DNA of 13,200 bases from an archaeon. Lineage in GTDB: Archaea > Iainarchaeota > Iainarchaeia > Iainarchaeales > 1-14-0-10-31-34. Location of the stretch: NCBI GenBank assembly GCA_043815885.1, contig JBDRIL010000007.1, forward strand, positions 1-13,200, read 5' to 3'. The notes below the pieces were generated by a model that was given only the letters and a program-made list of their open reading frames with translations, was not told the origin of the DNA and made no database searches. A program made the translations under genes and the position numbers. Positions 2,180 through 3,079 of the stretch are shown in pieces. The first letter of the stretch is position 1. The number at the start of each line of letters is the position of its first letter.

Positions 2180-3079
2180 ATGAAGTTGTTTGAAAACATA
2201 ACAGGAAAACCAATTATGCTGGCAGGAGCCCATAATGGCTTGAGTGCCAAAATAGTTGAAGAATGTTCATTTCATGGCGTGTGGGCAAGTGGCTTTGAGA
2301 TTTCTGCTTCGTATTGCCTGCCTGATGCCAATATCTTGTCTATGAATGAAGTTTTAAACAGGGTTAAGGAAATGGTTAGTGCCGTGAAAATCCCAATAAT
2401 TGCTGACTGTGATAATGGTTTTGGGAATGCAGTAAAAGTCATTAAAACAGTGCAAGGTTTTGAGGGAGTTGGGGTTTCAGGAATCTGTATTGAAGACAAT
2501 GTGTTTCCAAAGAGATGCAGTCTGTACAACGGCTTTAGAAGGCGTCTTGAATCAATTGAGGAATTTTCTGAAAAAATTAAAGTAGCAGTTGAAACAAAAA
2601 CTAACAACAATTTCATGCTAATTGCGAGGACAGAGGCATTAATAGCAGGCTTAGGAATGAAAGAAGCCCTAAAAAGAGCTAAAGCCTATGAAGAAGCTGG
2701 CGCAGACGCTGTTTTGATTCATTCCAAGCAAGAAAATCCATTAGAAGTCATTGAGTTTGCTGAAAAGTGGAAGGGCAGCATTCCTTTAGTTGCAGTGCCA
2801 ACCACTTATTCTTCAATTTCAGCTAAAGAACTTTATAATAAGGGCTTTAAAATCGTTATTTTTGCAAATCACGCTATAAGGTCTTCTGTTAAAGCAATGA
2901 AAAACAATTTAAGTGAATTAAAAAAAACGGGTTGCATTAGTTCCATAGAAGCCAAAATAGCTCCTGTCGAGGAAGTTTTTTCTTTGACAGGCTTGGATGA
3001 TTTATTGAAAAAAGAAAAAATATATCCAACTTTGAAAAACACTAAAATGTATGGAATCAATCATAAAAAAAGTGGTTAG
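2180..3079 (+). CDS. pepM: Phosphoenolpyruvate mutase-like protein (ICL/PEPM superfamily) with a variant catalytic loop
   Basis: GAHNGLSA, GVWASG, LPDAN, DCDNGFGN, ARTEALIAG, LIHSK, VPTTY and IFANH match the PEP mutase/phosphonopyruvate hydrolase branch. The loop is EDNVFPKRCS rather than EDKxxxxxNS. It sits next to the decarboxylase genes, with SD AAGGTG upstream. Confidence 0.75.
   Translation: MKLFENITGKPIMLAGAHNGLSAKIVEECSFHGVWASGFEISASYCLPDANILSMNEVLNRVKEMVSAVKIPIIADCDNGFGNAVKVIKTVQGFEGVGVSGICIEDNVFPKRCSLYNGFRRRLESIEEFSEKIKVAVETKTNNNFMLIARTEALIAGLGMKEALKRAKAYEEAGADAVLIHSKQENPLEVIEFAEKWKGSIPLVAVPTTYSSISAKELYNKGFKIVIFANHAIRSSVKAMKNNLSELKKTGCISSIEAKIAPVEEVFSLTGLDDLLKKEKIYPTLKNTKMYGINHKKSG

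Follow-up and report, generated by a model that had tools for sequence, protein, structure and literature searches.

The window analysed here is a complete archaeal contig of 13.2 kb (JBDRIL010000007.1, assembly GCA_043815885.1), assigned to a genome of 1.16 Mb that is 91.7% complete. Six plus-strand genes occupy positions 1117–6733 and encode, in order, the alpha and beta halves of a probable split phosphonopyruvate decarboxylase (Ppd), a homologue of phosphoenolpyruvate (PEP) mutase, an aldehyde dehydrogenase, a 426-residue P-loop protein and an ornithine carbamoyltransferase (OTCase). Adjacent genes overlap or are separated by no more than 12 bases, the alpha and beta genes overlapping by 17 bases. 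The third gene, at 2180–3079, is the main subject of this report. It encodes a 299-residue protein of the PEP mutase (PepM) branch, henceforth referred to as the window protein, that matches the Pfam family PF13714 (PEP_mutase) with 192.9 bits against a gathering cut-off of 31.5. Its gating loop (residues 105–114) is encoded in frame on the plus strand at 2492–2521 by gaagacaatgtgtttccaaagagatgcagt, which reads E105 D106 N107 V108 F109 P110 K111 R112 C113 S114. In the HMMER alignment with mussel PEP mutase (1m1b), which has a constant offset of 9, N107 is the counterpart of Lys116 and C113 that of Asn122. The departure of the loop from EDKxxxxxNS at two positions (K to N and N to C), reported in the initial annotation, was thus confirmed, as was its numbering of the Cys as residue 113. 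The other PepM-branch strings that it had listed were likewise located in the translation, namely PDANIL (containing D49), HSK at 181–183, VPTTY at 207–211 and ANH at 229–231. Most probably the window protein is a functional PEP mutase, converting PEP to phosphonopyruvate, and belongs to a large clade that carries an EDN-x-F-P-K-R-C-S-[F/L]-Y loop in place of EDK-x-F-P-K-x-N-S. The sequence features, the clade with its placement and the gene contexts are observed directly; from them we infer this activity, what the Cys does, which product is made and the steps that follow phosphonoacetate.

The best NCBIfam model for the window protein was that of PEP mutase (TIGR02320, 301 bits). The models of phosphonopyruvate hydrolase (PPH; TIGR02321, 268 bits against a cut-off of 374.4), methylisocitrate lyase PrpB (TIGR02317, 180 bits against 354.4), carboxy-PEP phosphonomutase (TIGR02319, 126.3 bits against 420.05) and isocitrate lyase (25.7 bits against 275.9) all scored below their cut-offs. 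Among proteins of solved structure the closest matches were PPH 2dua (253 bits), PepM 5unc (252.6 bits) and the mussel PepM 1m1b (218 bits), with lyases reaching at most 119 bits. Eleven catalytic residues of mussel PepM (W44, S46, G47, D58, D85, D87, E114, K120, S123, R159 and H190 in mussel numbering, which is used below for positions outside the window protein) are identical in the window protein, where the residues for Mg2+ and substrate correspond to Asp49, Asp76, Asp78, Glu105, Lys111, Ser114, Arg150 and His181. The roles of the latter are described, in part, in a 2021 review (PMC7916636).

The EDN/Cys loop is the signature of a large clade and is no one-off. The exact decamer EDNVFPKRCS was present in 37 of the 120 best homologues, taken from 3575 word-index matches, and nearly all of the remaining ones carried EDN-x-FPKRCS variants; a chance origin of the loop is therefore not at issue, since it lies in a conserved enzyme and recurs exactly. 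An exhaustive HMMER search of 1.84 billion representatives clustered at 50% identity returned 744 matches at E ≤ 1e-30. Loop types are given here as the residue at 116 followed by those at 122–123. The best 147 representatives aligning across the loop comprised 94 of the canonical K/NS type, 17 N/NS and 15 N/CS, the rest having Q, H, G, A, S or T at 116, or S, H or T at 122; this ranking is biased towards relatives of the query, and the shares are not population frequencies. A collection of 267 homologues was assembled, in which Cys occupied the Asn122 position in 122 proteins and 101 had the canonical Lys and Asn. Ser was found at the Cys position in two homologues (P0053 and P0155).

Judged from this collection, the changes in the lid co-vary, Cys122 occurring together with Arg121, Tyr125 and Phe48. 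Arg or Lys was found at position 121 in 147 of the 163 proteins without Lys116, compared with 17 of the 104 that have it, and Tyr125 in 142 of 163 compared with 2 of 104. Phe replaced Leu48 in 113 of the 122 Cys-loop proteins. The catalytic site was retained throughout: depending on the position, the 11 residues listed above were kept in 103–122 of the 122 Cys-loop homologues, and the eight Mg2+ and substrate residues (D58, D85, D87, E114, K120, S123, R159 and H190) in 119–122. The PEP mutase model scored above the PPH model in 22 of 24 Cys-loop proteins, these being the 22 with any match at E ≤ 1e-70. In IMG many proteins of the clade are named 'phosphoenolpyruvate phosphomutase', while NCBI mostly lists them as 'isocitrate lyase/phosphoenolpyruvate mutase family protein'.

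Three trees were built, all by quick searches: a FastTree phylogeny of 174 rows with one outgroup, and two IQ-TREE phylogenies under LG+C20, one of 107 rows with six lyase-type paralogues as outgroup and one of 70 rows with five outgroups. The PepM branch was separated from the lyase paralogues with support 100 in both trees having several outgroups, and the window protein fell inside the PepM branch. Canonical EDK proteins formed a single clade in all three trees (support 99, 95 and 91). The PPH-like K/TS and K/SS sequences nested within this clade; the window protein was placed outside it, among the EDN types, in every tree. When the 12 loop columns were removed the two classes still clustered, with 3 label changes where shuffling gave a mean of 20.9, and the window protein again fell among the EDN types. 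An N/NS subclade (P0002, P0007, P0014, L057 and L072) was nested next to the Cys-loop protein of locus L003 with support 97–99, which indicates that Cys and Asn interchange among close relatives within one pathway context. The EDN types were drawn as a grade below the EDK clade in all rooted trees, and a single EDN-type clade was not rejected by the approximately unbiased (AU) test (log-likelihood difference 1.85, p 0.465); the EDN types may be either a sister clade or a basal grade. An ancestral status of the EDN type, as the three rooted trees would suggest, is not claimed here in view of that p value.

Gene contexts were collected from a scan of one genome per prokaryote species, which yielded 80 loci encoding proteins 48–57% identical to the window protein. 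Their loops comprised 75 N/CS, 2 S/CS, 2 N/NS and 1 K/NS, giving 77 Cys-loop loci. A C-terminal extension of about 270 residues was present in 75 of the 80 proteins (four of the 75 being cut by contig ends), and all eight extensions that were scanned matched NTP_transf_3. A PntC-type fusion of this kind has already been described for canonical Ppm by Rice et al. 2019 (PMC6697681). A Ppd-type match (E ≤ 1e-25) was found somewhere in the genome in 50 of the 55 genomes counted, which cover 55 of the 80 loci; among the Cys-loop genomes the share was 47 of 52, and 3 of 14 control genomes gave a match in the same search. Of the five genomes lacking a match, three are small assemblies (0.9–2.1 Mb) that may be incomplete, and the other two are those of loci L079 and L058. 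In L079 an HMGL-like synthase and an aconitase lie beside the mutase gene, an FrbC-type way of pulling the reaction. Other loci had a class-V aminotransferase (2-aminoethylphosphonate (AEP) transaminase) and a membrane protein resembling lysylphosphatidylglycerol (LPG) synthase near the mutase gene (L068), or a CDP-alcohol phosphatidyltransferase (L017, from Minicystis rosea, and L005). In L003 a 449-residue protein with a helix-turn-helix (HTH) and a cupin domain (8587–9936), an architecture resembling that of HEPD/MPnS-type oxygenases, is encoded directly upstream of a Cys-loop PepM-nucleotidyltransferase fusion, with Ppd downstream and a phosphodiesterase and a flippase among the further neighbours. 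The neighbourhood survey of EDN-loop homologues proposed in the initial annotation thus shows that they travel with Ppd, PntC-type nucleotidyltransferases, AEP transaminase and an FrbC-like synthase.

Two further arrangements were observed in this sample. In L058 (Streptomyces sp. SID3343, 9947–17913) a stand-alone Cys-loop PepM with the loop EDNEFPKKCS is encoded beside two ATP-grasp ligases and a homologue of the glutamate mutase E chain, and this route may be a phosphonate pathway that is pulled by something other than decarboxylation. In Binatia (L036, L013 and others) the PepM-nucleotidyltransferase fusion lies among unrelated genes (TldD/PmbA, an exonuclease and a Rieske protein), and the genes of a split Ppd occupy another part of the chromosome, some 0.9 Mb distant in genome G215. 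Because of this distance, phosphonate mining based on neighbourhoods would also miss these genomes.

In the window itself, the probable split Ppd lies directly upstream of ORF 2180–3079 and couples the mutase to a decarboxylase, as in canonical systems. The alpha half (1117–1617, plus strand; N-terminal thiamine pyrophosphate (TPP)-binding domain, PF02776, 41 bits) scored 111.5 bits with the sulfopyruvate decarboxylase alpha model TIGR03845 and 105 bits with the Ppd model TIGR03297, both under the cut-offs. The beta half (1601–2167, plus strand; C-terminal TPP-binding domain, PF02775, 54 bits) scored 179.9 bits with TIGR03297, whose cut-off of 312.5 is set for the whole unsplit protein, and 162.4 bits with the sulfopyruvate decarboxylase beta model TIGR03846.

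The gene downstream of the mutase (3086–4480, plus strand) encodes a PhnY-like aldehyde dehydrogenase of 464 residues (PF00171, 372 bits). Its best NCBIfam match is TIGR03250 (PhnAcAld_DH), at 388 bits far under the cut-off of 635.65, and its best solved relative is PhnY (4i3t, 260 bits), with PFNHP, QRC and YR-x-E aligned. Four PhnY positions, an Arg, the His of PFNHP, the Arg of QRC and the Arg of YR-x-E, are identical in the two proteins; these correspond to Arg108, His159, Arg290 and Arg447 of PhnY, which we take to bind the phosphonate. The enzyme probably oxidises phosphonoacetaldehyde to phosphonoacetate. A phosphonoacetate branch consisting of Ppm, Ppd and a PhnY-type dehydrogenase accounts for about 6% of ppm neighbourhoods according to Li and Horsman 2022 (PMC8942020). 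The window operon follows the same three-enzyme logic, and its dehydrogenase is closest to PhnY; it differs in its small-genome archaeal host, its Cys-loop PepM and the low score of the dehydrogenase against the family cut-off (388 and 636 bits).

The fifth gene (4477–5757, plus strand) encodes a 426-residue protein of an uncharacterised family, with a beta-rich N-terminal domain and a dethiobiotin synthetase-like P-loop domain and with no Pfam family above cut-off. Its 37 homologues are named, where names are given, 'hypothetical' or once 'BioD', and the named matches come from Scytonema, Micrarchaeota, Ktedonobacteraceae, Korobacteraceae and Pandoraea. An alignment-based structural model reached a predicted local distance difference test score (pLDDT) of 90.4; in Foldseek it matched dethiobiotin synthetase and the CTP synthetase synthetase domain best and the acetyltransferase DgcN less well, and the ESM Atlas returned DUF1611-like models with template modelling (TM) scores of 0.72–0.75. 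The family adjoins PepM or Ppd in three of four loci: the window, L084 (7955–9265), where it stands beside a canonical EDK PepM and a split Ppd, and L085 (234–1823), where it stands beside Ppd; the fourth, L086, lacks such a neighbour. Its occurrence beside a canonical PepM-Ppd pair makes it a second, independent gene that ties the window cluster to ordinary phosphonate clusters. The family looks like an undescribed phosphonate tailoring enzyme. L084 also encodes two ATP-grasp proteins of the L-amino-acid ligase type, a major facilitator superfamily (MFS) exporter and a 2-oxoglutarate oxygenase-like protein. A metagenome scan with the P-loop family gave real relatives in 3 of 66 loci, the others being generic P-loop matches.

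Neither ComA nor PhnA was found in the 91.7%-complete genome, which argues against a coenzyme M route and a catabolic route. Searches of the genome by tblastn, with queries from the bacterial loci, found no AEP transaminase, Fe-alcohol dehydrogenase, HEPD-like, CDP-alcohol transferase or FrbC-like genes.

The window protein shares with canonical PEP mutase (EC 5.4.2.9, TIGR02320; 1m1b and 1pym from mussel, and 5unc) the PF13714 fold, the Mg2+ and substrate residues and the coupling to a probable Ppd, and its bacterial Cys-loop relatives also share the PF12804 nucleotidyltransferase fusion. It differs in the replacement of Lys116 by Asn, Asn122 by Cys, His125 by Tyr and Leu48 by Phe, in having Arg at 121, and in its position outside the EDK clade and below the TIGR02320 cut-off. 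Mechanistically, we propose that phosphoryl transfer is Mg2+-dependent and dissociative, as it is in mussel PEP mutase, and that the changes in the lid form one coordinated, compensating set. The positive charge of Lys116 would be shifted to the Arg at position 121, the Cys would take the hydrogen-bonding place of Asn122 over the migrating phosphoryl group, and Tyr125 and Phe48 would repack the lid. The adjacent split Ppd would pull the unfavourable equilibrium towards phosphonoacetaldehyde, the PhnY-like dehydrogenase would oxidise this to phosphonoacetate, and the dethiobiotin synthetase-like protein would probably activate or conjugate phosphonoacetate with ATP.

Several observations weigh against assigning the window protein as a working PEP mutase. 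Its score of 301 bits with TIGR02320 is lower than the curated cut-off of 319.55, which is a weak criterion in that it was reached by 5 of 24 canonical EDK representatives and by 0 of 24 Cys-loop proteins. The loop departs from the EDKX5NS motif at two of its five fixed positions. According to the 2021 review (PMC7916636), most authors trace the mutase/hydrolase difference between PepM and PPH to Asn122Thr, an attribution that the review itself doubts. The covariation counts from the 267 proteins are uncorrected for relatedness and shared ancestry, and the 80 loci are phylogenetically lopsided, with many from Binatia and Polyangiaceae. A Ppd homologue lies inside the locus in only 16 of the 80, and 5 of the 52 Cys-loop genomes gave no Ppd-type match at E ≤ 1e-25. 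In the window, the models of sulfopyruvate decarboxylase (ComD/ComE) give both decarboxylase halves scores much like those from the Ppd model. Finally, the contig is only 13.2 kb long and its assignment to the genome depends on binning; the archaeal-type genes NMD3 and beta-CASP on the contig are consistent with the assignment, as is the G+C content of the cluster (34.9%), which is near that of the genome (36.8%).

Other functions were weighed for the same protein. The Cys at the loop position invites comparison with the lyases, and the initial annotation had described such a Cys as lyase-typical; six lyase-type paralogues from other genomes indeed read EDQxxP[KR]RCG[HF]. A C-C lyase or hydrolase of the isocitrate lyase superfamily (of the methylisocitrate lyase, oxaloacetate hydrolase or carboxy-PEP mutase type), with the TPP-dependent neighbour acting as a decarboxylase of sulfopyruvate or another 2-oxoacid, would agree with this Cys and with the similar scores of the decarboxylase halves on the sulfopyruvate models. 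It is nevertheless very improbable, given the lyase model and structure scores reported above (180, 126 and 26 bits with the PrpB, carboxy-PEP mutase and isocitrate lyase models, and at most 119 bits with lyase structures against 253 for PepM and PPH), the position of the lyase paralogues as an outgroup at support 100, and the fact that no ComA was found in the genome. The protein shares P-K-R-C and the aligned Cys with the methylisocitrate and isocitrate lyases (TIGR02317; 1mum and 1xg4), whose K-x-C-G-H loop continues with Gly-His where the window protein has Ser-Leu. The same likeness bears on a milder proposal, in which the protein is a working PEP mutase and the lid Cys adds a property such as redox gating or a second, lyase-type proton-transfer activity inherited from a lyase ancestor. 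Four of the six paralogues carry the identical P-K-R-C (EDQxxPKRCGH) and two carry PRRC; the Cys of the window protein is aligned with that of the lyases, the presumed catalytic residue of those enzymes. A Cys is found in 122 of 267 homologues from many phyla, and the EDN types lie nearest the root in the rooted trees. This added role is nonetheless judged unlikely. The Cys gives way to Asn in a nested subclade whose context is the same (L057 and L072 beside L003), and Ser also occurs; such exchanges are easier to reconcile with a hydrogen-bonding residue that can be substituted than with a thiol acting in catalysis. Moreover, the Gly-His of the lyase motif is absent, and the trees do not establish a basal position of the EDN types (AU p 0.465).

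Retention of phosphonopyruvate as ligand with altered chemistry, in which the enzyme would be PPH-like or catabolic and Cys113 would let water or its thiol attack, is the other branch of the choice posed in the initial annotation. PPH departs from PepM at the same position, where 2dua reads FPKDTS, and the Thr that had been expected there was thus verified (the 2021 review also treats this difference, PMC7916636). The PPH model scores only 33 bits under the PepM model, and the best solved-structure match is nominally PPH, by 253 against 252.6 bits. The hydrolase PalA (TIGR02321; 2dua, 2hjp and 2hrw), equally similar to the window protein and likewise departing from Asn122, differs in keeping EDK and having Asp-Thr at 121–122, in nesting in the EDK clade and in being catabolic, whereas the window context is biosynthetic. 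The PPH-like sequences, which are of types K/TS and K/SS and have Asp at 121, group as a subclade inside the EDK clade, far from the window protein; the aminotransferase and transporter genes that accompany phosphonoalanine catabolism are missing from the window; the neighbouring decarboxylase would compete for the same substrate; members of the clade are fused to biosynthetic nucleotidyltransferases; and TIGR02320 outscores TIGR02321 in 22 of 24 Cys-loop proteins. Hydrolase-type chemistry is rendered distinctly unlikely by the location of the PPH-like sequences elsewhere in the tree and by the biosynthetic context, and nothing that was computed points to it. An inactive relic in a small genome was also considered, as a PepM homologue occurs in only 2 of the 215 genomes of the phylum and the pathway is no lineage trait. 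Such a relic is the least probable explanation: the reading frame is unbroken, the catalytic residues are all present, the gene sits in a tight six-gene operon and a large clade conserves the same form of the loop. A functional PEP mutase of a Cys-loop clade thus remains the preferred reading.

Support for the other possibility raised by the initial annotation, namely that motif filters discard a clade of PEP mutases, comes from the clade-defining loop, from placement in the PepM branch also without the loop columns, from the phosphonate gene contexts and from the strictness of published filters. The PEP mutase gene is the marker for counting and mining phosphonate producers, and EDKX5NS is the accepted filter. 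A strict EDKX5NS filter was applied in Rice 2019 (PMC6697681), which retained 1485 of 27,716 PF13714 proteins and dropped 22 fused ones. The same filter is stated in Li and Horsman 2022 (PMC8942020), in Acker 2022, and as a 'perfect match' in a 2025 actinomycete survey. In their 2020 preprint, Acker et al. allowed as many as two deviations where Ppd or MpnS was adjacent, a provision on which the printed version is silent. With filters of this strictness, published surveys of phosphonate producers would miss the Cys-loop clade. A full-text literature search found no description of the EDN/Cys clade and no assay of a member, with most subscription journals outside its coverage and absence from print thus unproven.

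If the clade is active, inventories miss whole lineages and the frequency of phosphonate biosynthesis is underestimated. Among species-representative genomes, Binatia and Polyangiaceae (with Minicystis rosea as a cultured example) make up most of what is missed; Planctomycetota, Acidobacteriota, some Actinomycetota and the archaeon of the window are affected too. The clade is also a natural experiment on the roles of Asn122 and Lys116 in the mutase mechanism, and it may show how the mutase lid originated from the lyase lid. What the window contributes is an operon of the phosphonoacetate type in an archaeal genome of 1.16 Mb, and an uncharacterised P-loop enzyme that recurs in phosphonate clusters.

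The last gene of the operon (5759–6733, plus strand) encodes an OTCase (TIGR00658, 352 bits; cut-off 281) and begins one base past the preceding stop codon; ATG at 5759 is the likely start, and TTG at 5723 is possible. A second OTCase is encoded elsewhere in the genome (contig C14, 20744–21682; L174, 6733–7704, minus strand). Both copies pass TIGR00658 and are 41% identical; the window copy has the usual strings STRTR, HPCQ, D-x-W-x-SMG and HCLP, and the other copy reads SLRTR, DSWMSY and NCLP. Two OTCase matches were found in only 2 of the 61 searched genomes of the order. A carbamate kinase is present in the genome (C62), and an arginine deiminase was not found there. The acquisition of a foreign OTCase together with the cluster is unsupported, as other families of the same order hold relatives with 46–53% identity; where checked, these are the sole OTCase match in their genome (for example in G053). 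The G+C contents of cluster and genome (34.9% and 36.8%) likewise lie close together. To our knowledge, no described phosphonoacetate pathway includes a dethiobiotin synthetase-like P-loop protein and an OTCase.

N-phosphonoacetyl-ornithine is the classic synthetic bisubstrate inhibitor of OTCase, and ArgK is the immunity OTCase of the producer of phaseolotoxin. In a speculative reading to which we attach little weight, the operon at 1117–6733 would be a pathway to a phosphonoacetyl conjugate, in which the Cys-loop mutase, Ppd and the PhnY-like enzyme would make phosphonoacetate, the P-loop protein would use ATP to ligate it to an amine (giving N-phosphonoacetyl-ornithine if the amine were ornithine) and the OTCase of the operon would be the producer's immunity copy. 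The basis of this idea is solely gene adjacency and the presence of two OTCases. Against it stand the ordinary OTCase relatives in the same order and the lack of any OTCase linked to the P-loop family in L084–L086. If true, it would describe a natural antimetabolite from a tiny archaeon of the symbiotic type.

The second PepM-bearing genome of the phylum (G056, contig C17, L180) has a different cluster at 4554–8123. Its PepM carries a canonical EDK loop and is fused to a cytidylyltransferase, and the cluster further encodes an unsplit Ppd, an Fe-alcohol dehydrogenase, proteins of the sulfatase family and a flippase. The difference between the two clusters seemingly reflects two independent acquisitions in the phylum.

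The remaining features of the window lie on both sides of the operon. An open-ended minus-strand gene at 1–819 encodes a signal-peptide protein with repeats of about 40 residues (D-S-x-G-x-V-G-x-x-T-S-I-A-L-D-S-N-D-x-P-H-I-S-Y-Y-D) and a weak BNR_4 match, and is probably a beta-propeller surface protein. A lysine-rich protein of 213 residues with weak matches to Peptidase_C39_2 and phytochelatin synthase is encoded at 10890–11531 on the minus strand. A gamma-carbonic-anhydrase-like gene occupies 6792–7256 on the minus strand, and the 134-residue ORF that lies antisense within it (6795–7199, plus strand) is very probably a shadow frame and no gene.

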